Notes under the pieces: generated by a model
Told to the model about the DNA's origin: nothing
Seen by the model: only the letters and a program-made list of their open reading frames with translations
The model's database searches: none
IMG/VR virus record: IMGVR_UViG_3300007552_000001
Strand: one strand, 5' to 3'
Source of the DNA: an uncultured virus (IMG/VR IMGVR_UViG_3300007552_000001)
Lineage: Duplodnaviria; Heunggongvirae; Uroviricota; Caudoviricetes
Length of the DNA stretch: 64,000 nt
Program-made: the position numbers and the translations under genes
In this document: positions 1 to 63,500 of the stretch, one piece after another
Position numbering within the stretch: position 1 is the stretch's first letter
Layout: every line of letters starts with the position of its first letter

Positions 1-1
1 A

Positions 2-1144
2 GCTGAAATTGAAAAGTTAACAAAGGAAAACAAACATGGTTACGCTAAAGATATTAAAAGATTAAAGGTTAGATTATCTGCGGTTAATATGATGAAAAAG
101 TTTAATAAGAACAATGAATCAGTAGTTACTGAAGCTAAAAACGACGGTAACTTAGACACTATTGCCGATTACGTAAAACAAGTCTTAGATGATGGTAAAT
201 CATTTATGGATATTGGTAAAAAACTTAAAGGTTCATATAAGTATGATTTTAGTACAGGTATGATGCCAATGTATATTATTCCAGTATCTGGAAATAAGAT
301 CGTTATTATTAATAAGAAATATGTTGAAAACGGACAAGCAGATAGAGTCGTTGGAGATATTGCTATTGGCCTAATGGAATCAATGGTTACTGAAGCTAAG
401 GGTTTTAAAAACGATGAAGATTTCGAAGAATTTTTAAAAGAAATCGATGCTATGCCAGAAAGAGCAGTTAGAAAGATAATGGGTAAAGAATATATCGATA
501 CTCCTGGTTTTTATCAAGATGAAAAAGACGATTATGATGATGTAATTGACTTCATGATTTCAAACATGGGTGCAAATATTTATCACCAATTAGAACAGTG
601 GTGGGAATTAAACGTAATGAAACCGGGTCTTAGAGAATCTAAAATTCAAATAAAAAGAAGATATACCGATAATCATCCTGCACAAACTTCAGGTAGAACT
701 GCTAAAGTCAGAAACGCAATGATCGAGGCATTAGCGGATGGTGTATTAACAGAAGAAGAATTCAATAATATTCTAAAAGAAAAATCAATCGATAATAAAA
801 GATGGATGAGAAGAAATTCTAAATACTTTACAGTAAGTGAAAATGGAATTGGTCTTTCTAAATTTGGAAAAAGAATATTAACTGGAATTAAACCAGTTGT
901 TAGTTTAACATTAGAATCTTTTATTAACGAAGCTAATTATATTAAATTTAAAGGAAAGAAAGTAGATATTAGTTCATTAGAAATGGAAGATGTTGATATG
1001 AAAGATTATCCAGATTTTTCAGATGCATACTTTAGCTATGGTGAATATTCTAATGGAAAAGAAATGACTGACGAAGAATTATCAGATTTTACAGATGATA
1101 ATGGAGACTTAGCTAATGAATTAGCACATGATTCCTTACATTAA
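2..1144 (+). CDS. 5'-truncated modular putative internal head (capsid-packaged) polyprotein
   Basis: Frame is open from nt 2, so the 89 ATG is probably internal. Unrelated modules are separated by ESVVTEAK, ESMVTEAK, LRES and LESFINEA. Confidence 0.6.
   Translation, partial: AEIEKLTKENKHGYAKDIKRLKVRLSAVNMMKKFNKNNESVVTEAKNDGNLDTIADYVKQVLDDGKSFMDIGKKLKGSYKYDFSTGMMPMYIIPVSGNKIVIINKKYVENGQADRVVGDIAIGLMESMVTEAKGFKNDEDFEEFLKEIDAMPERAVRKIMGKEYIDTPGFYQDEKDDYDDVIDFMISNMGANIYHQLEQWWELNVMKPGLRESKIQIKRRYTDNHPAQTSGRTAKVRNAMIEALADGVLTEEEFNNILKEKSIDNKRWMRRNSKYFTVSENGIGLSKFGKRILTGIKPVVSLTLESFINEANYIKFKGKKVDISSLEMEDVDMKDYPDFSDAYFSYGEYSNGKEMTDEELSDFTDDNGDLANELAHDSLH
116..139 (+). repeat. Linker repeat GAATCAGTAGTTACTGAAGCTAAA (ESVVTEAK), copy 1
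   Basis: Identical to 1509-1532; near-identical copies at 377-400 and 3686-3709. Confidence 0.9.
377..400 (+). repeat. Linker repeat copy 2 (ESMVTEAK)
   Basis: GAATCAATGGTTACTGAAGCTAAG. Confidence 0.85.
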
Positions 1145-1146
1145 AA

Positions 1147-1154
1147 GATATATA
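1147..1154 (+). promoter_or_regulatory. Putative late promoter (GATATATA)
   Basis: RATATATA recurs just upstream of virion genes throughout the window. Confidence 0.6.
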
Positions 1155-1178
1155 CTATTATAAACAAAACAATATAAA

Positions 1179-2705
1179 ATGAAACTATATACTAACTTCG
1201 ATAATTTTATCAATGAAGCAAAGGTTATGAAGCAGAAAGATACTGCTAAAATAGCACAAAAATTAGCAGCTGCTCTTTCAAAAGCAGACGGAAAAGAATT
1301 CACAATTTCTAAAAATTCATTAGATGCCGGTGGTTTTGATCTAGATATGGATGGAGACGAATATGCAGGAGGAACTTATTTTATTGGTGATGCTGGTGAA
1401 ATAGTAAACGCAGCAACAAGTAATGATGTATATGGTAACATAGACGATAGTGAAGCAGAATTAGTTAAGAATATTAAAAAAGGTAAATTTTCAAAATACA
1501 GAGCAACTGAATCAGTAGTTACTGAAGCTAAATCTAAATTTAAAATAGGCGATAGAGTTTCTATTCTGAGCAAAAGTTCTAAAAAACCCTTTGATTCTGG
1601 TGAAGTTACTGGCATACAAAAGGATGGTACAATTCTAATTAATGGTTTAGAGACTATTTCACATGAAGTAGCTATAGATGCAGAATTAGTTGTTAAAGAA
1701 TCAGTAGATATTGAACTTAATGAAGCTCTAGCTTCTTCTAAGTTAAGAGGATTAATAGACATCAAAAAAGGTGGTAAGGAATTAATTAAAGGTATATATG
1801 GTCTTGCTAAAATAGCACTAGATAAAGTTACCGATGATATGATAATTTCTAATAGCAACCCAGTTGAAGTATATAAGAAAGCAAAAACATTCGGAAACGT
1901 AATTGTATTTTGGATTTCTAGAAATGAAAAAGAAAACGAATATGCTCCTTCTTCAAGATATGTTGAAATGATTCCTGGAAATTGTTTATTAGCTGTTTCT
2001 AATGGAAAAAATGAAATGTTTCAGAACGATTCAATATGGAATAGAAACGATGACATGAAAGGGAAGCAGAAAAACACAAGAAGACTTAAGAACATGGGTA
2101 AATACCCTGGATCTAAAGATACTGTTGGTGTTAACAAATCACACAACCAATATAGTGGAACGGGACTAGGTAACATTAAAAGAATTGCAGAAGTGTCTGA
2201 CGAATGTTACATTATTAATTTAGACGCATTAAGAGATTCTTTATCTACTAATGACAAAACATCTGCAAGAGCAGAGGCAAGGTCTGGAGCTACTGCACTT
2301 ACAAACCCTAAGAAAATCAAAGAGGATAACTTAACAAGGTATAACGATATTCTTGCTAAGAGAGCCGATAACCCAGATAAAATAGACAAAAAGGTTAAAG
2401 AAATTATCGAAGATGCACATCAATTCTTAATGGCTGGTTTAGCGAAGAAAGAACTTGGAAATTATAATGAATTAACAATAGGAAAAGATCCAAAGGGAAG
2501 AGAAATTAGACCAAGAGATTTAAATAACTATATTTCAAATATATTGTCAGATTATCAAGGATATGTATCAGCATACGTTAATATGAAAACTGAAGAAGAA
2601 CAATACGGAAAAGCCTCTTCATATTATATGAGAGATGCTAAACGTAAAGCCCTAGAGCTTAAGCAAAGAATCGCTAAATGGGATAACAAAAATATAGTTT
2701 GGTAA
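1179..2705 (+). CDS. Modular putative internal head protein with N-terminal capsid-targeting-like peptide
   Basis: N-term MKLYTNFDNFINEAK resembles T4 IP targeting peptides. Internal ESVVTEAK and ESVDIELNEA flank an SH3/KOW-like module (FKIGDRV). Confidence 0.6.
   Translation: MKLYTNFDNFINEAKVMKQKDTAKIAQKLAAALSKADGKEFTISKNSLDAGGFDLDMDGDEYAGGTYFIGDAGEIVNAATSNDVYGNIDDSEAELVKNIKKGKFSKYRATESVVTEAKSKFKIGDRVSILSKSSKKPFDSGEVTGIQKDGTILINGLETISHEVAIDAELVVKESVDIELNEALASSKLRGLIDIKKGGKELIKGIYGLAKIALDKVTDDMIISNSNPVEVYKKAKTFGNVIVFWISRNEKENEYAPSSRYVEMIPGNCLLAVSNGKNEMFQNDSIWNRNDDMKGKQKNTRRLKNMGKYPGSKDTVGVNKSHNQYSGTGLGNIKRIAEVSDECYIINLDALRDSLSTNDKTSARAEARSGATALTNPKKIKEDNLTRYNDILAKRADNPDKIDKKVKEIIEDAHQFLMAGLAKKELGNYNELTIGKDPKGREIRPRDLNNYISNILSDYQGYVSAYVNMKTEEEQYGKASSYYMRDAKRKALELKQRIAKWDNKNIVW
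1509..1532 (+). repeat. Linker repeat copy 3 (ESVVTEAK)
   Basis: 24/24 identical to 116-139. Confidence 0.9.
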
Positions 2706-2707
2706 TT

Positions 2708-3025
2708 ATGAAAAAAGTAAAATTATTTGAACAATACATTAATGAATCAGCTATCGATTTATTAGCAGATGAAATAGAAGATGCAAAAGCATTTGATGCG
2801 TTTTCAGATGGACAATCAGTTCAAGCAAGATCTACTAAAAAAACATGGGACGATGGTGTTCCAGTTTTAAAGTATATTGCTAGAGCTCCAAAAAAATCTG
2901 TTAAATTACCTAAGAAATTTAAAGTAGTAGACGACACTAAATATGGATGGTGGTATTTACAAGTATCAGGAGTATGGTATGGTATTGAACAAAGTGATTA
3001 TGGAACACCGCCATTTGAATATTAA
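2708..3025 (+). CDS. Small putative internal head protein
   Basis: ATG at 2708 gives MKKVKLFEQYINESA, a capsid-targeting-like N-terminus. Confidence 0.6.
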   Translation: MKKVKLFEQYINESAIDLLADEIEDAKAFDAFSDGQSVQARSTKKTWDDGVPVLKYIARAPKKSVKLPKKFKVVDDTKYGWWYLQVSGVWYGIEQSDYGTPPFEY

Positions 3026-3028
3026 GAT

Positions 3029-5077
3029 ATGGAATTAAACGAAAACGAAAACTTATCACTTGGCGATATGGCCGGAATGGGAGAAGTCTCTTTACCATCT
3101 GAAACATCAGTTGGATCAGGGGATATTCCAGCCGGAAAAGGAGATGCCGAAGAAGAGTATAAGAAGAAGAGAAATAAAAAGAAACAACGCGAAATGAAAA
3201 ACATTATATCATTTGAATCTTTCGGATCTACTAATGAAGCTAAGGCATATAAGTTAAAGGCTTCTGAATTTGGTGGAGATACTCATTCAGCACCTTATAA
3301 CGTAAAGGGCGAACCTACATGGAGAGTTCATAGTACTTATGCTATCGATCAAGTATCTGGTGAAAACAACCCAGAAGAAAGAGATGTAGTTTTCTTTGAA
3401 GCAATGCCTATTAATAATGACATATACATTAAGATTGGTGGAATCAATAACCTTAAAAGAACTAATGGTTCTACATACGGTAATAACTTTGGTACTACAA
3501 TTGATGAATGGAAAATAGATCCAAAGGGAATTGCAAAAGAAGCTTCTGATTTTCTTACCGATGCAACACACCTTAAATGGATAAACAAGAAAGCAAGAAG
3601 TGAAGGCCAAACAATTAAATGGGCTTTGAAGGACGATTATTCTAGCGTTATTGAAGATCTAGTTAATAAATCATTAGGTCTTAGTGAATCAGCAGTTACT
3701 GAAGGTAAATTTGACGGTATTGCAGATTTGGTAAAATCTTTACATTTCGAAATGGATCCTAAAACTGCCGAAGAAAAGAAGATTGAAATAGGTTACAGAC
3801 AAGGAGAAGTAACAAAGCGCAAACAAATTGAAGGTGGTAATTATTCACTAAGAAGATTCAGAAAAGAAATTAAATATTGGGACGGTAATAAAAGAGATCA
3901 AGAATGGGCAGAAGGCGTATTTGCTGGTCCAGACCATTATAATACTGTAAAGTCAACTTTAGGAGCAGGTCCTCATAAGAAAGCTGCTAAGAAAGTAAGA
4001 TGGACTCAAAAGAAATATGATCAATGGTTAGAAGATGTTGCATCGAACGACGGTTGGAAGAACGCCTATGATATGGCACAAAACGCACAATTCGAACCAG
4101 GACTTATTGATTGGGTGGAGAAAAACTTTAGAGGTGAAGATGCAATGCAAAGAATCCAATGGGATATTGAAGCATTTGCAGAATCAACAACCACTAAACT
4201 GACTCATTTAAAATCTATTAATGAAAGTGCTGTTTTAGATAAAGAAACAGACGATGAAATATTCGATTCAGAAACATATTATACAATAAGTAAGGTTTTA
4301 GCTATTTCTAGAAAATCTAAAGAATGTAAAGAAGCATACAAAAGAGAATCTAACTTCGGTAACGGTTTACAAATGGCAGAGCGTTTAAAAAAGGAATTTC
4401 CAAAAATTCAATTTAGATGTAGAGTTTATAGATCAGAATGGAATTATGGAGGTAATTTGTGTTTAGCTATTGATCTTCGAGGAAAATCATGGAAACATGA
4501 AGTATTTAAGTTTTCGTCTAACAACTCAACTCGTAGACCTAATTATTCATTTGCAAAATTATTTAATGGAACTAAAAAAGTATCTACTAATGAAGTAGAA
4601 GACGAATGGGGTATGGGAATTGTTCACGGATCATATCAATCTATTTCTAGCTTTGATAAATTTATGGATGATGTAGTTGGAGTTTTCAAAGATTACAAAA
4701 GAGTAAACGGAGTAGAATTTGACATGAAAACTATCTTAGCAGGTTTTAAAGCTAATGATAAAATATTAGCCGAATGGACTAGATTAAAGCCAAGAATCGA
4801 AAAGCAATATGACATCGCAAAGGCAAGCGGAAGAAAAGCACATAGAAGAATAGAATTAAGAATGCCTTATATTAGAACGGCTGAAAAGAAAGTTTATTAT
4901 AAGACTGACGAGCCAAGAGAATTAAGACATCCTGATGAATATGGAGAAAGCGCTTATAACATTATAGATGGAAAAGATTATGCTAAATACGAAGCTGCTC
5001 AAGCTAAGGTTTCAGATATGATTGAAAAGTTTTGTAAGAAACATAACTTTGAATTTGTATGGGCTGCTAGCTGGTAA
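3029..5077 (+). CDS. Modular putative internal head polyprotein
   Basis: Internal MKNIISFESFGSTNEAK, LSESAVTEGK and LTHLKSINESA delimit modules. Confidence 0.6.
   Translation: MELNENENLSLGDMAGMGEVSLPSETSVGSGDIPAGKGDAEEEYKKKRNKKKQREMKNIISFESFGSTNEAKAYKLKASEFGGDTHSAPYNVKGEPTWRVHSTYAIDQVSGENNPEERDVVFFEAMPINNDIYIKIGGINNLKRTNGSTYGNNFGTTIDEWKIDPKGIAKEASDFLTDATHLKWINKKARSEGQTIKWALKDDYSSVIEDLVNKSLGLSESAVTEGKFDGIADLVKSLHFEMDPKTAEEKKIEIGYRQGEVTKRKQIEGGNYSLRRFRKEIKYWDGNKRDQEWAEGVFAGPDHYNTVKSTLGAGPHKKAAKKVRWTQKKYDQWLEDVASNDGWKNAYDMAQNAQFEPGLIDWVEKNFRGEDAMQRIQWDIEAFAESTTTKLTHLKSINESAVLDKETDDEIFDSETYYTISKVLAISRKSKECKEAYKRESNFGNGLQMAERLKKEFPKIQFRCRVYRSEWNYGGNLCLAIDLRGKSWKHEVFKFSSNNSTRRPNYSFAKLFNGTKKVSTNEVEDEWGMGIVHGSYQSISSFDKFMDDVVGVFKDYKRVNGVEFDMKTILAGFKANDKILAEWTRLKPRIEKQYDIAKASGRKAHRRIELRMPYIRTAEKKVYYKTDEPRELRHPDEYGESAYNIIDGKDYAKYEAAQAKVSDMIEKFCKKHNFEFVWAASW
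3686..3709 (+). repeat. Linker repeat copy 4 (ESAVTEGK)
   Basis: GAATCAGCAGTTACTGAAGGTAAA, 2 mismatches to copy 1. Confidence 0.85.
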
Positions 5078-5091
5078 TCTTTAAAATATTT

Positions 5092-5118
5092 AAACAATTT
5101 AAGAATGCTCTGTATAAC
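5092..5118 (+). promoter_or_regulatory. Putative middle (ECF-type) promoter AAAC-N16-GTATAAC
   Basis: Exact 16-nt spacing shared by 12 sites. Confidence 0.7.
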
Positions 5119-5133
5119 TACAGAGCATTTTTT
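5104..5133 (+). terminator. Intrinsic terminator overlapping the middle promoter
   Basis: AATGCTCTGTA-TAAC-TACAGAGCATT followed by T run. Confidence 0.75.
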
Positions 5134-5144
5134 ATTAATAGAGT

Positions 5145-5537
5145 ATGGACAAGATGAGATTCGCATTAATTGCACACGATAACAAAAAAGCAGACATGGT
5201 AGCATTTGTATCTAAGAGATTAGATTTCTTTAATAGCGATGCAGTAGACATAGTTACTACAGGAACTACGGGGAAAAAGGTAGAGCATGCTGGAATTGAT
5301 AGAGTTTCTACTGTTCAAAGTGGTCCTCTAGGTGGAGATGCTGAAATAGCGGCAATGGTAGTTAGAGGAGAAATCACAGGCGTAATATTCATGAGAGACC
5401 CTCTCGATAAACATCCACATGATGTAGATATATCAATGCTAATGAGACTTTGCGATGTCCATGACATCCCCTTGGCTACCAACTACAGTACGGCAAGTAT
5501 TCTTATCAAGTGGTATAGATCTAAATATAAAATATAA
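5145..5537 (+). CDS. mgsA: Methylglyoxal synthase
   Basis: ALIAHDNKK, TTGTTG, SGPLGGD, DPL..HPHDVD and DIPLATN motifs. Confidence 0.92.
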   Translation: MDKMRFALIAHDNKKADMVAFVSKRLDFFNSDAVDIVTTGTTGKKVEHAGIDRVSTVQSGPLGGDAEIAAMVVRGEITGVIFMRDPLDKHPHDVDISMLMRLCDVHDIPLATNYSTASILIKWYRSKYKI

Positions 5538-24467: not shown

Positions 24468-24475
24468 GATATATA
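24468..24475 (+). promoter_or_regulatory. Putative late promoter GATATATA
   Basis: Motif match. Confidence 0.65.
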
Positions 24476-24502: not shown

Positions 24503-25840
24503 ATGAATAACAAAATCTTAAAATACGATCAGTATTTAAATGAGGCTATGAAAACAGGTTCAATCGAACTTGTAAATCCTTCTCTAAATAAAGCAGCTAC
24601 AATAATCGCAAGATTTGTAAATAAGAAAACAAAGAAGGACTTTAAAAAGTTTCCATTTGAAATGATAACAGATATGGGTTCTGGAGTAATGTTTTACTCG
24701 AGTAAAGGTACAGAGGCATTTATGGTAACTGCCGCTGCGGCAAAAAACCCTGGTATTGTGGGTTCTATAATCTATTTCTCAGATGCAGCAAACGCTAAAT
24801 CTGATTTTTCTATTTCATCTGAAACATTCCCAATCGTTAAATTAGTTGGAGAATTCGTTAGATTAATGGATAAAAAATACGTTGCATCTATACAGGAGTC
24901 AATGTTATTAGAAAGAAGAACTAAAAGAGCATTCTCTAAAGAAGAAATTAAAATGATCGAGGCTAAATTAGCAGCTGGAATGGCCGTTAATAAAATAGCA
25001 GACGAATTAGAAGTTCCTTATTCTTCAATCATGAATATTAAGAAAGGACAACAGGTTGCAATAAAGCCTACTGCTGCTGAAACACAAAATGATATGACAC
25101 TTAATGATAAGGTTAAATATCTTGAAGAAACAATGGAAGATATTTATGAAATATCTAGAAGAGTGGCTGCAGGTGCATTTAATTCCTTATTTATTTCGGG
25201 TAGAGCAGGTACTGGTAAAACATATAATGTAGAAAGAGCAATGAAAGATGAAGGTCTTGTTGACGAAGAAGATTACGTTATGGTTTCAGGTGCAGCATCT
25301 GTTATTATGATGTATAAGAAATTCTATCAATATAGAAATAAGACATTAATCTTTGATGACTGTGATGCAGTATTTAGAGATGAAAACGGTAGAAACTTAA
25401 TGAAAGCGGCATTAGATACAAAGAAAGTAAGAAAAATCTCTTATTTAAAAAAGACTAAAGCAGTATACGATCCTAAAGACGTGAGTCCTGAAGAAGCATT
25501 TAATTTAGAAGAAAGCGGAATTGTTCCTAACTCATTTGAATTTGCAGGAAGAGTAATCTTTATTTCTAATTTAGCAAAAGAAAAGGCAGATCCAGATGGA
25601 GCTATTAGATCTAGATCTATTTTAGTAGATGTAAATCCTGACGATGCAACTTTAATGGAAAGAATGGAAAGGTTATTACCTCATTTAGAACCTACTGAGA
25701 TGCCACTTAAAGAAAAGGAAGAAATCTACGAATTTATGAAAAATGCAAACGATATCTCTATGAGAACATTCGTTAAAGCAGCTGGTTTAAAAATGTCCGG
25801 TTTACCAAATTGGCAAAGAGCAGCGACAAGATACCTATAA
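24503..25840 (+). CDS. HTH + AAA ATPase protein with capsid-targeting-like N-terminus
   Basis: ILKYDQYLNEA; HTH AVNKIADELEVPYSSI; GRAGTGKT; LIFDDCD; FISN; AIRSR. Confidence 0.75.
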   Translation: MNNKILKYDQYLNEAMKTGSIELVNPSLNKAATIIARFVNKKTKKDFKKFPFEMITDMGSGVMFYSSKGTEAFMVTAAAAKNPGIVGSIIYFSDAANAKSDFSISSETFPIVKLVGEFVRLMDKKYVASIQESMLLERRTKRAFSKEEIKMIEAKLAAGMAVNKIADELEVPYSSIMNIKKGQQVAIKPTAAETQNDMTLNDKVKYLEETMEDIYEISRRVAAGAFNSLFISGRAGTGKTYNVERAMKDEGLVDEEDYVMVSGAASVIMMYKKFYQYRNKTLIFDDCDAVFRDENGRNLMKAALDTKKVRKISYLKKTKAVYDPKDVSPEEAFNLEESGIVPNSFEFAGRVIFISNLAKEKADPDGAIRSRSILVDVNPDDATLMERMERLLPHLEPTEMPLKEKEEIYEFMKNANDISMRTFVKAAGLKMSGLPNWQRAATRYL

Positions 25841-29032: not shown

Positions 29033-30622
29033 ATGGCAGGATTTATAGAAAGAAACGGACCATTAAGTACTGGTAAAAGATCATTCACTTTAAGTGATAC
29101 ATTAAAAAGACTCTCGTCTTTCGGAATGTATTACGATGATTTAGTCTTAAGACAATCTCAGGCAATAGGTCCCGTAGAAGATGAATTTGGTTACGGCCAA
29201 ATGAATCAAATGGGTCTAGACGACGATAATATGTATGGAGCATTTGCTGCATTATCGATGGCGGACACAACAATGAGAAAAAATATTCCTTTCTTTGACC
29301 AGGGTTATGAAGGTAAAAGAGACGAATTAAGAAGATTTTCCACTCATGATGAAATAGAAGATATATTAGATATCTTATGTGATGAATCTATCGTATATGA
29401 CAATAAGAACTTTATTGGAAATCCAGAACTTATTGGAATGGATGTTTCAGAAGAAGTTACTAAATACTTAAATAAATCGTATAGAGATTTATACCAATAT
29501 TTTGGGTTTAATTCTGATCAATCTGCGTGGTATTTCTTTAGAAAATTCCTAATTGATGGATATTTGTCTTTTGAAATAATTTACAATCCAGAACAAGATC
29601 AGATTATAGGTTTTAAAGAAATAGATCCTATTACATTAATGCCAGGTTATAATAAAGATGACGGTAAAAAAGTATGGGTTCAATTTAAGGACGATCCAGT
29701 TAAGGAAAGAGTTCTATATGATGCACAGATCATCTATCTTTCTTATTCTTCAATAACCACTGCCTCGAGAGTAAGTTACTTAGAAAGACTTGTAAGATCA
29801 TTTAACTTAATGAGAATTATGGAACATACCAGAGTTATCTGGGCAGTTACGAATTCTTCTTATAGAATGAAGTTTATCATCCCAGTTGGTGGTAAATCTA
29901 AGACAAGAGCAAAACAATCTCTTGCACAATTAATGGGTAACTATAAAGAAGTTGTAGATTTTGATTGGGATTCAGCTACATTAGCAACTAATGGAAAACC
30001 AATGCTTCAGTTTAATAAAGAATACTGGTTACCATCTAAAGAAGGTGAATCTCCAGAGATTGAAACTCTAGGAGGAGAAGGTCCAGAATTATCAGATACA
30101 GAAGCACTTAAATATTTTAATGATAAATTAAAAATGGTTTCTAAAATACCATTCAATAGATTTATGTATGAAGACGGTGGTGGTGACTTTAACCTTGCAG
30201 CCGATGGTATGATTAGAGATGAAATTAAGTTTTCTAAATTTATTAAAAGATTACGTTCTTCTTTCCAAGAAATTTTAGTAAAACCGCTTCACATCCAAAT
30301 GTGTCTTAAATTTCCTGAATTCAAAGATGATGCAGGTTTTAAAACTCAAATAGCTATTCAATTTAATGAAGAAAACATGTTTGCTGAATTAAAGCAAATG
30401 GAAATCATGGAGAAAAGATTAGACTTTATATCTACAATGCAAGACTCCCTAATGAAAACCGATCCAGTTACGATGGAAGAAATGCCTTACTTCGATATGG
30501 AATTCTTAGTAGACAGATACTTAAAATTATCACCAGATGATAAAGTTTCAAACGAAGCATATAAGCAAAGACAGGCTAATATTGATGCCGAAGAACCGGA
30601 TGTTGATCCTATGGCAATGTAA
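29033..30622 (+). CDS. gp20: Portal protein
   Basis: F.IDG, SYL......N.MR.ME, YWLP..EG...EI.TL.G, RDEIKF.KFI.RLR. Confidence 0.93.
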   Translation: MAGFIERNGPLSTGKRSFTLSDTLKRLSSFGMYYDDLVLRQSQAIGPVEDEFGYGQMNQMGLDDDNMYGAFAALSMADTTMRKNIPFFDQGYEGKRDELRRFSTHDEIEDILDILCDESIVYDNKNFIGNPELIGMDVSEEVTKYLNKSYRDLYQYFGFNSDQSAWYFFRKFLIDGYLSFEIIYNPEQDQIIGFKEIDPITLMPGYNKDDGKKVWVQFKDDPVKERVLYDAQIIYLSYSSITTASRVSYLERLVRSFNLMRIMEHTRVIWAVTNSSYRMKFIIPVGGKSKTRAKQSLAQLMGNYKEVVDFDWDSATLATNGKPMLQFNKEYWLPSKEGESPEIETLGGEGPELSDTEALKYFNDKLKMVSKIPFNRFMYEDGGGDFNLAADGMIRDEIKFSKFIKRLRSSFQEILVKPLHIQMCLKFPEFKDDAGFKTQIAIQFNEENMFAELKQMEIMEKRLDFISTMQDSLMKTDPVTMEEMPYFDMEFLVDRYLKLSPDDKVSNEAYKQRQANIDAEEPDVDPMAM

Positions 30623-31077: not shown

Positions 31078-33114
31078 ATGAATACAAAAAACAATCTATT
31101 AATCCTAGAAAGATCTTCTAGTGAATTAGAATTCAAACAAGATGGTGATGGGGCTTATGTCCTTGAAGGTATATTTGGAGAAATTGACAAAAAGAATAGA
31201 AATAATAGAATCTATACTGAGTCAGAATATGTTCCACAAATCGAAGCTCTTCAATCTAAAATAGGTTCTTCTAAACTTTTAGGAGAATTAGATCACCCAC
31301 AGACATTTGATGTATCTTTAAAAAACGTATCTCACGTTATTGAAGAATTATCCTATGATAGCGAAACAAAACAAGTAAAAGGTAAAATCAGATTACTTGA
31401 TACTGAAGCTGGTCGTCAGGCTAAAGCTTTGGTTGATGCTGGTGTTCCTTTACAAATTTCATCTAGAGCAGCTGGTACAGTTGAATCTAACGGGACTGTT
31501 AAAATTAAGCAATTATTTACTTATGATTTAGTTGCAGATCCTGGTTTTGAAAATGCTGAATTAAAAAGAGTTAACGAATCTTTCGGATTTGATAACGATT
31601 CTAGCATTCAAATTTATGAAATTGGAAATACAAAAGAACTTTTAACAACCGAAAATAAAACTGAAAACAAAATGGCTGAATCAAAATTCGTAAGTACTGA
31701 TGATTTTAATAAATATTCACAGTATTTATCAAGCGAAATAAAAACTATTAAAGAGGGAATGGAATCTTTAAATAGTGATGAATCTGTAAAGTCTGAAGTT
31801 GAAAGCGTTAAAGAATATTCAAACTATCTTGCTGAGAAATTAGAAAAGACTATCGAGTATTCTGCATACCTTGCTGAAAACTTAGATAATACAATAACTA
31901 CAAATAACGAAATATCTGAGAAATTAGATAATAGCGTTGCATATACTGAGCATGTTGCTGAAGGTGTTGAATCAATTAAAGAATATACTAATTACTTAGC
32001 AGAATCTTATAATGAAGGTGCAACAACTCATGAAGGCTTATTAAAGTATATTGAATACTTAAAAGAAAATTTAGAAAAAGTTACTGAATATGCAGAATAC
32101 GTTGCAGAAACAGTTAATTCTAATTTATTACTAGAAGATGAAGCTGGTAAAGAAGTTGAAGAAATTGAAGATGAAGACGATTCTACTGATGTTACTGAAC
32201 CTACAGTTGATGCTGAAGATAATGAACTAGATCATGGCGCAGAAGTTAAAGACAAATCTGACGAGTTAGAAGACGAGTTAGAAGATACAGTTGACGATGC
32301 AGGTGACGAAGAAATTTCTGAAGAAGAGGCTGCCGAAGATGTTGAAGAAACTGAAGAAGTTGAAGAAGTTGAAGAAGGAAATGCATTCGGTGCTGCAAGA
32401 GCTAAAGCAATCGCAGACGGAGAAAAAGAATTTACAGTAGACGGAGAAACTTTTAAAGTTGAAGACGTTGATGCTGAAGATAAAGAAAATGCTGAAGAAT
32501 TTGTTGAAGAAGCAACTGAAGAAGCTGAAGCAGTAGAAGAAACTGAAGAAGAAGAAGTTGAAGAAGTTGAAGAAGCTGTAGACTCATTAGACGCTTACAA
32601 ATCTGAAATTAGTTCTAAATTATCTGCTTTAATCGAAAAAGCAACTGTTAAAGAAAATACTAACCCTCATTTCTTTAGATTTATTTCTGAAGCTAAGAAA
32701 TCAGAATATAACGAATTAAATATTGAAGATCAATCTAAAGTATTAAAATCAATCGAAGGAAAAGGATTCTTAACTGAAGGACAAATTCTTACATTATGGA
32801 ACTCTTCATTAGTAAATAGCGTTAAAACTAACGAACCTAATGTTATTGAAATGATGCCAGAAGAATATAAAGAAACATGGTCTAAATTATCAGACAACAA
32901 GAAAACAGCTCTTTTAGCTCAATCTAAATACCATAAACTAGAAACTGCTTACCAAGTAAGAAACTTCTGGCAAACTAGAGATCTTAGAGATGTCAAAGTC
33001 GTTATGGAAAAAGTAGAGACAGTAAATGAAGCTGCTCCTGTTATTGAAGATAAGAAACCTTTATATGATTTAACTAATGTTAAGAAGTCTATTAACAAGA
33101 GATTCAACAAGTAA
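31078..33114 (+). CDS. gp21: Prohead protease fused to scaffold (gp21-gp22-like)
   Basis: LEGIF...NRNNRIY, GELDHP, VSH, SSRAAG, DLVADP, followed by a long acidic coiled-coil. Confidence 0.88.
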   Translation: MNTKNNLLILERSSSELEFKQDGDGAYVLEGIFGEIDKKNRNNRIYTESEYVPQIEALQSKIGSSKLLGELDHPQTFDVSLKNVSHVIEELSYDSETKQVKGKIRLLDTEAGRQAKALVDAGVPLQISSRAAGTVESNGTVKIKQLFTYDLVADPGFENAELKRVNESFGFDNDSSIQIYEIGNTKELLTTENKTENKMAESKFVSTDDFNKYSQYLSSEIKTIKEGMESLNSDESVKSEVESVKEYSNYLAEKLEKTIEYSAYLAENLDNTITTNNEISEKLDNSVAYTEHVAEGVESIKEYTNYLAESYNEGATTHEGLLKYIEYLKENLEKVTEYAEYVAETVNSNLLLEDEAGKEVEEIEDEDDSTDVTEPTVDAEDNELDHGAEVKDKSDELEDELEDTVDDAGDEEISEEEAAEDVEETEEVEEVEEGNAFGAARAKAIADGEKEFTVDGETFKVEDVDAEDKENAEEFVEEATEEAEAVEETEEEEVEEVEEAVDSLDAYKSEISSKLSALIEKATVKENTNPHFFRFISEAKKSEYNELNIEDQSKVLKSIEGKGFLTEGQILTLWNSSLVNSVKTNEPNVIEMMPEEYKETWSKLSDNKKTALLAQSKYHKLETAYQVRNFWQTRDLRDVKVVMEKVETVNEAAPVIEDKKPLYDLTNVKKSINKRFNK

Positions 33115-33269: not shown

Positions 33270-34700
33270 ATGGCAAATTTAATTAACTCTGCAGAAGTTA
33301 GAGAAACTTGGGCTCCGATCATCGAATCAGCTACAGGTATCAACGAAGCAGAAAAACTAGCGTGGATGTCAGAATACTGTCATAACCACAAACTTTACGA
33401 AGATGCACACATCATGTCTTTAGGGACTGCTGGTAACATCTACGGTATGGGTGATGTATCTTTACCTTCTGCAACTGCAGACGGTTCAGGTGATAAAGCT
33501 CCTACATTATTACCATTAGCAATGCAAGTTGCTGCACAAACTATCGGTTTAGACTTAGTACCAGTTGTACCAATGGCTGGACCAATGGGTCTTTTATCTT
33601 ACTTAGACTTCGTTTACGAAGGTGGTAAATTAATCGGATCAACTGCTCCAACTTATGTAAAAGTATCAGGTACTAACTTAGTTGTTGGTGCTACTGCTGA
33701 AGGAGCTACCTTTGCAATTGCTCAAGGTGCTTCTAGATTAGACGGTATGGAAATTTACAAAATCACTGTAGCTGGTGAAGCGAAAGCTGATGCTGGTGCA
33801 GTTGCAGATTGTTTCTCAGCTGATAACGACGCTGATGGTATTTCTACTTTAAAGATCGAATTAGTGAAAGCTTTAGAAGATCATATTAAAGGATTCGCTG
33901 CTGCTGACAAGGATGGTAATGCATTCTCAAGAGGTGTTGGTGAACAAACTCCTGACAAAGTTATGGGTCTTTCTTTATTCTCAAAAAGTGTTGCTGCTGA
34001 AACTTTCCAAGTTGCTGCTGCAGTTACTAGAGAACAAGTACAAGATCTTAAACAATTCGGTGTAGATGCTGTTGCTCAAGTTGAGTCAGTATTAACTAAC
34101 GAATTAACTCAGTCAATCAACAACTTAATCTTAGCTAAACTTAATTCTTTAGGTAAATCTAACATTGCTCAATCAGGTGCTGACTTAGACTTAGACTTAA
34201 CTGATGGTGTATTAGGTGGTGAGACTATCGCTTCTAACCATAGAAGAATCTTAACTTCAATCCTTGCTGCTGCGAACTTTATCGCAAACAGAGGTAGAAG
34301 AGGTGCAGGTAACTTCTGTGTTGTAGGTCCTAAAGTGGCTACAGCTTTACAATCAGTTGCTGGTTTCGTTGCTAACCCAATGGCTAACACATTATCACAA
34401 GCAGCAGGTGCAATCTACCCAGTAGGTTCTGTAGCTGGTGTAAATGTATACACTGACCCAAGACAAGCATGGGAAGGTGCTGCTGACAATACTTATGAAG
34501 TAGTAGTTGGTAGAAAAGGTGATGGTAACGGTCCTGGATTAGTATTCATGCCTTACTTAATGGCTGAATCAGTACAAACAATCGCTGAAGGAACTATGGC
34601 TCCTAAAGTTGCTGTTAAATCTAGATTCGCATTAGTTGAAGCAGGTTTCCACCCAGAAACTCAATATGTTACATACAATGTATCTAACTTAGCTCTTTAA
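33270..34700 (+). CDS. gp23: Major capsid protein
   Basis: W.PI.E, VVPM.GP.G, E..QDLK, NELTQSIN, R.G.GNF, FMPY, P...KSR. Confidence 0.93.
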   Translation: MANLINSAEVRETWAPIIESATGINEAEKLAWMSEYCHNHKLYEDAHIMSLGTAGNIYGMGDVSLPSATADGSGDKAPTLLPLAMQVAAQTIGLDLVPVVPMAGPMGLLSYLDFVYEGGKLIGSTAPTYVKVSGTNLVVGATAEGATFAIAQGASRLDGMEIYKITVAGEAKADAGAVADCFSADNDADGISTLKIELVKALEDHIKGFAAADKDGNAFSRGVGEQTPDKVMGLSLFSKSVAAETFQVAAAVTREQVQDLKQFGVDAVAQVESVLTNELTQSINNLILAKLNSLGKSNIAQSGADLDLDLTDGVLGGETIASNHRRILTSILAAANFIANRGRRGAGNFCVVGPKVATALQSVAGFVANPMANTLSQAAGAIYPVGSVAGVNVYTDPRQAWEGAADNTYEVVVGRKGDGNGPGLVFMPYLMAESVQTIAEGTMAPKVAVKSRFALVEAGFHPETQYVTYNVSNLAL

Positions 34701-37763: not shown

Positions 37764-37810
37764 TTGCTGAAATATTTTTTTATCTCAGAAATTTTGCTTA
37801 TATTAGTAAT
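37761..37810 (+). promoter_or_regulatory. Early-promoter repeat copy 2
   Basis: TTTTTTTATCTCAGAAATTTTGCTTATATTAG. Confidence 0.75.
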
Positions 37811-42192: not shown

Positions 42193-42843
42193 ATGTCAGA
42201 AGAAAAGAAGTCAATAAAAGACCAAGCAGAAGATATTAGAAAAGAGCTTGATGAACTTATTGGTGAAAGTGTAGATATAACAGAGGCCACGGATACTGAT
42301 CCGGCGTTTCTTCCACTTCAACCAAAGGAAGTTCTTCCATCATTTGGAGAACTTAAAACAAGATCTACTAAAACAGCTAAGAAGACTATAACAGCCCTTA
42401 TGAAATTTTATCTTGCAGAAGATATAATTGAAAAGGATGAATATATCGCTGCTAAGAAAAAGATGGATGAGATGACAATGTCTTCTTTAGTTTATCAATT
42501 ACAAGCAGGTGAAAGAGCTCTTACAACATTATTAGAAACTATCGAAGATGGTGAATTAGCTCCAAGAATGTTTGAAGTTCTTGCAACTTTACAGAAATCA
42601 ATGCTAGATATTATTAAATCCCAAACAATGTATTTAATGGCAACTGAAGAAAGTGCTAAACGAATTTCTAGAGATATAGAAATTTACAAGAAAAGAGATG
42701 ATGTTAGGGAAATAGAAGAATCAGGAGGTTCCACTGGTGATTCTGCGGTTCAAAGAGGAACTAAAGATCTTATGAGAATGATTCGTTCTGGAATCGATTC
42801 AGAAACTCAAGATATCGAAGATGTAGAACCTAACGAAGAATAA
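42193..42843 (+). CDS. Probable terminase small subunit
   Basis: Directly before terminase; PRMFEVLATL and G.T.DL motifs resemble gp16. Confidence 0.65.
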   Translation: MSEEKKSIKDQAEDIRKELDELIGESVDITEATDTDPAFLPLQPKEVLPSFGELKTRSTKTAKKTITALMKFYLAEDIIEKDEYIAAKKKMDEMTMSSLVYQLQAGERALTTLLETIEDGELAPRMFEVLATLQKSMLDIIKSQTMYLMATEESAKRISRDIEIYKKRDDVREIEESGGSTGDSAVQRGTKDLMRMIRSGIDSETQDIEDVEPNEE

Positions 42844-53001: not shown

Positions 53002-53086
53002 GGAGAAGTGGCAGAGTGGTCGAATGCACTGGTCTTGAAAACCAGCGAACTTCACGGTTCCAGGGGTTCGAATCCCTTCTTCTCCG
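53002..53086 (+). tRNA. tRNA-Ser(TGA)
   Basis: GGAGAAG/CTTCTCC acceptor; CTGGT-CTTGAAA-ACCAG anticodon arm; long variable arm; GGTTCGAATCC; no encoded CCA. Confidence 0.93.
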
Positions 53087-53092
53087 CAAATT

Positions 53093-53169
53093 GGCCTGGT
53101 AGTTCAGCTGGTTAGAATGCATGCCTGTCACGCATGAGGTCGCGAGTTCGAGTCTCGTCCAGGCCGCCA
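53093..53169 (+). tRNA. tRNA-Asp(GTC)
   Basis: GGCCTGG/CCAGGCC acceptor; CATGC-CTGTCAC-GCATG; GTTCGAG T-loop; ends GCCA. Confidence 0.95.
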
Positions 53170-63457: not shown

Positions 63458-63500
63458 AAAGTTTTTTTATCTCAGAAATTTTGCTTATATTAGATAAGTA
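63442..63500 (+). promoter_or_regulatory. Early-promoter repeat copy 6
   Basis: TTTTTTTATCTCAGAAATTTTGCTTATATTAG. Confidence 0.8.

Follow-up and report, generated by a model that had tools for sequence, protein, structure and literature searches.

The DNA analysed here, referred to throughout as the window, is a 64,000-nucleotide stretch of an uncultured virus of the Caudoviricetes (IMG/VR record IMGVR_UViG_3300007552_000001), and our subject is a cluster of polyprotein genes at its beginning, in which mutually unrelated modules are joined in frame by a recurrent linker. Four tightly packed genes on the + strand (2-1144, 1179-2705, 2708-3025 and 3029-5077; genes 1 to 4) make up the part of the cluster that lies in the window, and the cluster as a whole covers about 14 kb and extends upstream of it.

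Elsewhere the window holds head and tail genes of T4 type, among them a gp20-type portal gene (29033..30622, +; Pfam Portal_T4, E 3.7e-68, with a PHROG portal match), a gp23-type major capsid protein gene (33270..34700, +; Pfam Gp23, E 2.9e-43, matching the PHROG major head protein) and a tail sheath gene. The best matches of the capsid protein are in an uncultured 462-kb phage (50.5% identity) and in Lak megaphages (46%), and the nearest record, G001, measures 123,787 bp at an estimated completeness of 44%. Judged from the T4-type head genes, the capsid kinship with the 462-kb phage and the size and completeness of G001, the source is therefore a T4-like jumbo phage. Close comparisons were made against G001 and IMG/VR contigs.

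Four genes built from leaders, modules and linkers

Module boundaries were drawn with two patterns fixed beforehand, E-S-x-hydrophobic-x-E and hydrophobic-(N/T)-E-(A/G/S). Gene 1 (2..1144, +) is open at the 5' edge of the window and contributes the last 380 codons of a polyprotein of 1111 amino acids (aa), which is complete in an IMG/VR contig identical over the region (L008/L066; L008 4631-7966, 1111 aa, at least nine sites). The full product consists of a leader and about ten pattern-defined modules of 47-298 aa, of which the window contains the end of a 56-aa module (2-133) and the modules at 134-394, 395-931 and 932-1141. Gene 2 (1179..2705, +; 508 aa) opens with a 13-aa leader (1179-1217) ending F-I-N-E and continues with modules 2a (1218-1526, 103 aa), 2b (1527-1724, 66 aa, missing from most relatives) and 2c (1725-2702, 326 aa). 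Gene 3 (2708..3025, +; 105 aa) has a single 92-aa module behind a 13-aa leader ending Y-I-N-E. In gene 4 (3029..5077, +; 682 aa), 70 N-terminal residues are followed by modules of 155, 174 and 283 aa (4a, 3239-3703; 4b, 3704-4225; 4c, 4226-5074). The first 55 aa of gene 4 (3029-3193) resemble the N-arm of the capsid protein encoded in the same window, with 14 of 21 residues identical to capsid residues 55-75 (33432-33494) around G-M-G-(D/E)-V-S-L-P...G-S-G-D (E 6e-08 for the single comparison), and this arm leads into an internal leader-like stretch, MKNIISFESFGSTNE (3194-3238, +).

Variants of the capsid-like N-arm, rather than the short leader, open the polyproteins of many relatives, and the corresponding region also differs between relatives' capsid proteins; the arm may represent a second kind of head-targeting signal. 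Fusion of the four genes by stop-codon recoding was considered and set aside, because genes 2 and 3 start with a leader and gene 4 with the capsid-like N-arm; the stops are TAA, and each downstream gene has its own Met.

The joints between modules include a 24-mer, GAATCAGTAGTTACTGAAGCTAAA, that is present exactly at 116..139 and 1509..1532 (ESVVTEAK in both cases), with three mismatches at 377..400 (ESMVTEAK) and with two at 3686..3709 (ESAVTEGK). All four copies are on the + strand and in frame within long open reading frames (ORFs), giving the consensus ES(V/M/A)VTE(A/G)K, and 100 dinucleotide shuffles produced no match. A putative cut after the Glu of the first copy would fall at 133/134. 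Around the two identical copies, the flanking DNA and the flanking peptide are unrelated. The first ten bases of the copy at 1509, GAATCAGTAG, recur at 1698-1707, where the junction ESVDIELNE then Ala (1698..1724, +) stands directly before module 2c. Other junctions are ESFINE then Ala (914..931, +) and KSINE then Ser (4211..4225, +). A sequence-only reading of this DNA, made without database searches, had described the 24-mer as an in-frame joint between unrelated flanks and had listed the further junctions LESFINEA (911-934), ESVDIELNEA (1698-1727), FESFGSTNEA (3212-3241) and LKSINESA (4208-4231); the shuffles, the ORF reading and the flank comparison confirm the first description, and every one of the listed junctions is present.

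The linker is constant at the nucleotide level

The same reading had drawn attention to identity at synonymous linker positions, and the conservation indeed goes far beyond codon usage. In the seven E-S-x-V-(T/N)-E copies of the phage itself, Ser is always TCA and the second Val always GTT. For codon counts across relatives, linkers were collapsed to 54 copies with different flanks: the Val at position 3 is GTA in 28 of 30 copies (binomial p 2.5e-9) and the Val at position 4 is GTT in 39 of 40 (binomial p 1e-10), Ser is TCA in 39 of 54, and Thr is ACT in 24 of 29. Val usage elsewhere in the same ORFs is 0.51 for GTT and 0.41 for GTA. Adjacent valines are fixed on different codons, and codon preference therefore cannot explain the conservation of the linker. 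When 17 representative loci were searched for DNA matches to an 18-mer (three mismatches or fewer), 80 of 80 matches were in frame on the coding strand. The linker is held constant at the level of nucleotides. Separately, the window encodes a tRNA-Ser (anticodon TGA) and a tRNA-Asp (GTC) at 53002-53169, and TCA, the preferred Ser codon of the linker, is cognate to this tRNA-Ser.

Modules are exchanged at the linker

Three scans of viral contigs yielded 30, 30 and 29 loci. In a tblastn comparison of the four proteins with 94 loci, 31 of the 85 distinct internal homology end-points lay within 5 aa of a predicted site, compared with a mean of 6.6 and a maximum of 19 in 10,000 trials of random placement, and 47 of the 85 lay within 10 aa (random mean 12.4). 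When 240 homologues were compared all against all by BLASTP, 1291 of 6417 end-points came within 5 aa of a site, against an average of 424 and at most 488 for random placement in 1000 trials; in both comparisons the counts represent non-independent events because related contigs share ancestry. At the ESFINE junction of gene 1, breakpoints fall at residues 1035-1039.

Individual modules can be followed from one context to another. Module 4a is cleanly deleted between sites 70 and 225 in two loci (L026, L029), and one contig has modules 4a and 4b apart from each other, in loci L059 and L060. Module 4b stands straight behind a leader in L092, L086 and L060 and terminates the ORF in L060, L061 and L062, where its stop codon lies close to the position of the KSINE junction. 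The gene-3 module, which stands alone in the window, is found internally or C-terminally in longer ORFs of three loci: in L059 it follows ESVVNE within the chain, in L035 it forms the C-terminus of a 712-aa ORF, and the third locus is L094. In a large protein collection, 543 proteins match gene 4 at E <= 1e-5; many of the 120 matches listed contain a single module, which covers 22-32% of the query at about 62-97% identity, within proteins of 380-1155 aa. One and the same module can be seen alone behind a short leader or within chains of up to 1104 residues. Relatives thus show several unrelated domains per polypeptide, in mosaic architectures.

Comparison with G001 resolves such differences down to the base. 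Sliding identity between the contig and G001 is about 95-100% except in two places. One is a block that starts at the 3' edge of a linker at window position -193 and stops at most about 30 nt short of the linker at 377, which forms its right boundary; its left break, at base resolution, is the base after the linker. The other is a 189-bp indel that corresponds to module 2b and is bounded by the direct repeat GAATCAGTAG at 1509-1518 and 1698-1707, and three relatives without module 2b show the short form at the same junction. In a gene of 832 aa upstream of the window, the comparison shows a further module indel, likewise between two linkers. Given these profile breaks and indels at linkers, all cassette differences seen in the G001 pair therefore start and end at linkers; whether close relatives differ by an insertion, a deletion or a replacement, copies of a single conserved DNA element stand at the boundaries. 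The sequence-only reading had proposed that the linker acts as a recombination joint and had raised the possibilities that modules exist as stand-alone proteins elsewhere and that related genomes differ exactly at linkers. The breakpoints and the G001 comparison bear out the joint; modules do occur alone, in other orders and in other genes of relatives; and an invariant module order is refuted. We hold with high confidence that modules are exchanged at a DNA-conserved, in-frame linker.

The linker as a candidate protease site

The product of 31078..33114 (+) contains an S77 protease domain (Pfam Peptidase_S77, PF03420; E 7.4e-10, 39.1 bits at a cut-off of 27) fused to a scaffold-like region, and it matches phrog_207, head maturation protease, at E 5.2e-42; a protease domain had been placed in this gene from the sequence alone, and these scans agree. 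It is the only protease recognised by Pfam and PHROGs among the scanned window proteins. T4 gp21 recognises L/I-X-E and cleaves behind the Glu, and the 10 N-terminal residues of IPIII are enough for loading into the head (PMC9026906). The analogy with T4 on which the sequence-only reading relied is sound in both respects, in that an S77 protease is encoded and that both the gp21 rule and a targeting sequence of about 10 residues are given in that article.

For the linker as a putative cut site the evidence is indirect, and its strongest comparative part comes from module 2c, for which 180 clusters (50% identity) match at E <= 0.001. Among the 150 clusters listed, 114 have the module-start signature. 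Glu occupies P1 in 98 of these 114 distant homologues, and L, I or V occupies P3 in 101. The pattern holds both in the 37 homologues that stand alone behind a leader and in the 77 in which the module is internal. The residues before module 2c fit the L/I-X-E rule of T4 gp21. Short N-terminal propeptides that end in an L/I-X-E-type motif are predicted for genes 2 and 3 as well, their leaders ending F-I-N-E and Y-I-N-E at residue 13. The cassette leaders may also resemble the T4 leader sequence itself. Motifs of the same type are kept in essential head proteins of the lineage: 59 of 59 relatives have R-V-N-E directly after the protease domain of the protease/scaffold protein, which in relatives also retains V/I/L-x-E about 25 residues before its C-terminal end, and K-L-Y-E is present in 45 of 45 capsid proteins of relatives.

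Predicted structure and module functions

An AlphaFold2 model of the gene 2 product, built on a 42-row alignment, has a mean predicted local distance difference test score (pLDDT) of 67 and a predicted template modelling score (pTM) of 0.36. Its pLDDT drops below 50 at residues 1-15, 105-142 and 155-182, which are the three sites, and reaches 77-90 in module 2a and mostly 70-89 in module 2c.

Searches for families returned little. The four proteins and ten separate modules gave sub-threshold noise only, and no family, against Pfam and PHROGs (with lax thresholds for the modules); Foldseek found no match to the gene 2 model in PDB or BFVD at E <= 0.001; and the ESM Atlas held no usable match for modules 2c and 4c. 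Neither the DNA of positions 1-5100 nor, by tblastn, modules 4b and 2c matched any of 50,697 phage records. Homology to IPI, IPII, IPIII or Alt was not found in Pfam, in PHROGs or by tblastn in the same records, and no family of polyvalent-type conflict or effector domains (peptidase, ADP-ribosyltransferase, nuclease, MuF) reached the cut-off in Pfam scans. The only domains recognised in relatives are DUF5824 and DUF3008, and a 623-aa protein encoded upstream has a cytidylyltransferase-like domain.

Expression context

The motif RATATATAR occurs in 14 copies between 12457 and 49540. With 10.0 copies expected and a count of 14 attained in 15 of 100 shuffles, this number does not exceed chance, and only the strand and placement of the copies are telling: each is on the + strand and a short way 5' of a gene for the portal, protease, capsid or sheath or of one of their neighbours. 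On this placement, RATATATAR is a candidate late promoter of the lineage. A variant, GATATATAC (1147..1155, +), precedes gene 2, and the late-promoter-like motif GATATATAG precedes the 832-aa polyprotein gene upstream of the window. Just after gene 4, a hairpin followed by a T-run (5101..5132, +; -17.2 kcal/mol, z -7.76) marks the probable end of the transcription unit.

A proposed mechanism and its alternatives

How might such chains be put to use? Head loading followed by cutting by the prohead protease is the best-supported mechanism, and we consider it probable. We envision that the short leader opening each gene would load the chain into the prohead core, as for the T4 internal proteins, with gene 4 presenting its capsid-protein-like N-arm first and the leader thereafter. 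Behind the leader would come one to about ten unrelated modules, each preceded by a putative hydrophobic-x-Glu site that in this lineage would usually take the form E-S-V-V-T/N-E followed by A, G, S or K. Inside the prohead, the S77 protease of the phage would then cut after the linker Glu, and a single leader would give rise to a whole set of separate small proteins that would remain with the DNA and probably accompany it into the host. At the level of DNA, the linker would serve as an in-frame homology patch under T4-type recombination, such that modules could be inserted, deleted and exchanged, and exchange at this point would spare both the reading frame and the cut site. That the four genes encode phage head cargo, loaded and cut as proposed, thus appears likely to us.

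A further-reaching reading, which we put forward tentatively, is that the linker serves two purposes at once, its peptide being the cut site of the prohead protease and its DNA a maintained in-frame recombination joint. Part of this same tentative reading is that the genes might form an integron-like cassette system that operates at the protein level, but inside reading frames, in widespread aquatic jumbo phages; and equally part of it is that the lineage might reassort its injected small proteins while one leader loads the whole set.

Several observations weigh against the proposed head-cargo mechanism. Packaging, cleavage and injection of the modules are inferred, as is the virion location of the proteins. 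An effector role of the modules is a guess by analogy, given that no module matches an entry of Pfam, PHROGs, PDB, BFVD or the ESM Atlas. AlphaFold2 modelled module 2b poorly and reached a mean pLDDT of only 46 for gene 4, too poor for domain boundaries. The capsid protein lacks the extended motif E-S-V-V-T-E, and its nearest look-alike of the linker, I-N-E-A (residues 24-27), carries Asp instead of Glu at P1 in 25 of 45 distinct relatives; on account of this replacement we rejected it as confirmation of the motif. In T4, Asp at P1 blocks processing (PMC9026906). Beside the non-independence of the breakpoint counts, there are breakpoint clusters off any pattern-predicted site in gene 1, at residues about 593-609, about 928-944 and about 1100, of which the cluster at 928-944 coincides with a degenerate E-S-K-I-Q-I junction.

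Might the chains instead travel whole? They would then be uncleaved multi-domain virion proteins of the polyvalent type, and the linker would be a hinge or a recurring short motif with affinity for the scaffold core or the inside of the capsid. There are precedents in polyvalent proteins, which have 2-15 domains and genes next to those of the virion, and in the virion RNA polymerase of phage N4, which is packaged unprocessed (PMC5512222). A hinge, however, would need no invariant Glu with L, I or V at P3, and 98 of the 114 module 2c homologues keep the Glu directly before the module, irrespective of what precedes it. Moreover, the motif at the end of the N-terminal leaders is that of the internal linkers and in T4 is a processing site, and modules are found alone behind a leader besides being found in chains. 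We regard uncleaved delivery as unlikely. The proteins might also not be head cargo at all, acting instead in the cytoplasm with another protease or none, their likeness to T4 leaders and sites being coincidental. The distance of about 24 kb between the cluster and the head genes would suit such a role, as would a count of late-promoter-like motifs that does not exceed chance. This would leave the placement of the leaders to chance, which in genes 2 and 3 and in the 37 stand-alone homologues lie at the extreme N-terminus and end hydrophobic-x-Glu, and it would do the same for the match of the gene 4 N-terminus to the capsid N-arm over 14 of 21 residues and for the retention of the same motif type in the protease/scaffold protein; the sole protease recognised among the scanned window proteins, too, is the prohead enzyme. 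A cytoplasmic role consequently seems very improbable to us.

The constancy of the linker DNA could have another origin, namely selection on mRNA or translation (for example a folding pause) or a nuclease target, with module boundaries falling there because other joins are lethal. Position-fixed codons, GTA then GTT, in 54 copies with different flanks could also be produced by selection on RNA; joins that break the frame would be selected against, and this alone would concentrate viable boundaries at domain edges. Against this explanation, the indels are bounded by direct repeats of the linker DNA itself (GAATCAGTAG at 1509 and 1698), and identity with G001 breaks off exactly one base past the linker, which is the signature of homologous exchange, for which T4-type phages need only short homology of less than 50 bp (PMC2839356). 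As an account of the linker in its own right this explanation is quite unlikely, and it can be compatible with the head-cargo mechanism that we favour.

Relation to known systems

The proposed head cargo has its closest parallels in the T4 internal proteins, which are diverse, fast-evolving and mutually unrelated cargo sharing just the leader (PMC9026906, PMC3012670, PMC12373910). In IPI, IPII, IPIII and Alt, as here, a short N-terminal leader ends hydrophobic-x-Glu and the phage encodes an S77 protease of gp21 type. T4 has one cargo per gene and leader, whereas in the window's lineage up to about ten modules stand behind one leader, and the internal sites are an extended motif of 6-8 residues with DNA conservation at synonymous positions. 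Polyvalent proteins, known from phages and conjugative elements, likewise combine many unrelated domains per chain in tailed phages, with proposed packaging and delivery alongside the DNA and with extensive mosaicism (PMC5512222). They contain recognisable conflict domains and are processed, where this has been proposed, by peptidase domains of their own (Iyer et al., 2017, PMC5512222), whereas the cassette proteins are without a detected known domain, and between their modules stands one uniform site compatible with the prohead protease.

Cutting of head proteins on a larger scale is known from phiKZ, 201phi2-1 and SPN3US, in which many head proteins are cut after Glu by a gp21-like protease, sometimes several times (PMC10052503, PMC9026906). 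In SPN3US, all the identified cleavages, apart from self-cleavage of the protease, yield N-terminal propeptides, and multiple cuts fragment propeptides; unlike the cuts envisioned here, they release no series of independent folded modules (PMC10052503). If our proposal holds, the polyproteins of picorna-like and potyvirus-like RNA viruses would be comparable in that one product is cut at a repeated extended site by a viral protease; there is no common descent, and the cassette genes differ in having a DNA genome, a different protease fold and a product that would be cargo rather than replication machinery. As for the DNA, the PeSL cassettes of T4-type phages resemble the present ones in that a short conserved DNA sequence flanks each cassette as a homology patch (PMC2839356). 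A PeSL, however, combines a promoter and a terminator in about 100 bp, lies between genes and moves genes as wholes (Arbiol et al., 2010, PMC2839356), whereas the linker measures about 18-24 bp, is coding and in frame rather than an intergenic promoter with a stem-loop terminator, and moves protein modules within genes. Full-text literature searches found no description of a phage polyprotein of this kind, and polyproteins are not mentioned in the available portion of an article on a Lak-related aquatic lineage (PMC12619734).

If the chains are indeed loaded and cut, they would represent a polyprotein strategy in a tailed DNA phage, in which many independent proteins share one targeting leader and the composition of the set can be changed by simple homologous exchange at a joint of 20 bases. 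Such a mechanism would explain the rapid diversification of injected cargo in giant phages. A corollary would be an extensive catalogue of small proteins that probably act within minutes of the start of infection, for example against host defences. Engineers could adopt the arrangement as a template by which a single construct loads several foreign proteins into a T4-type head.

Neighbouring genes and related elements

In the identical contig, three genes lie between the polyprotein genes upstream of the window (L008 277-1656, 459 aa; 1667-3538, 623 aa; 3531-4610, 359 aa), in addition to the 832-aa gene, which has the same build as genes 1 to 4. The 459-aa protein has the site F-D-E-Y-I-V-E after a short N-terminal segment, and the 623-aa protein has V-N-L-N-E then Ala just before its cytidylyltransferase-like domain (E 2.8e-08); such enzymes may be delivered in the same way as the cassette modules. 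Within the window, a 445-aa protein (24503-25840; phrog_1250, a weak D5-like match) has a leader-like N-terminus that ends Y-L-N-E then Ala (nt 24536), with GATATATAA at 24468, just 5' of the gene, and may also be head cargo. Among the tail genes, a 216-aa protein (42193-42843) contains E-S-V-D-I-T-E then Ala near residue 30, a junction of the type seen in gene 2. Directly after the cargo cluster, a 130-aa protein (5145-5537) has an MGS-like domain (E 5.5e-13).

A different repeated element is found outside the cluster. The 15-mer TTGCTTATATTAGTA occurs on the + strand just upstream of genes, exactly at 37794, 55084, 56374 and 62375 and in near form at 63481 and 7488, with 11 matches at two mismatches or fewer against 3.2 expected. 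Several of the copies are preceded by hairpin-like sequence and a T-run, and the element looks like a promoter-plus-terminator cassette of the PeSL kind.

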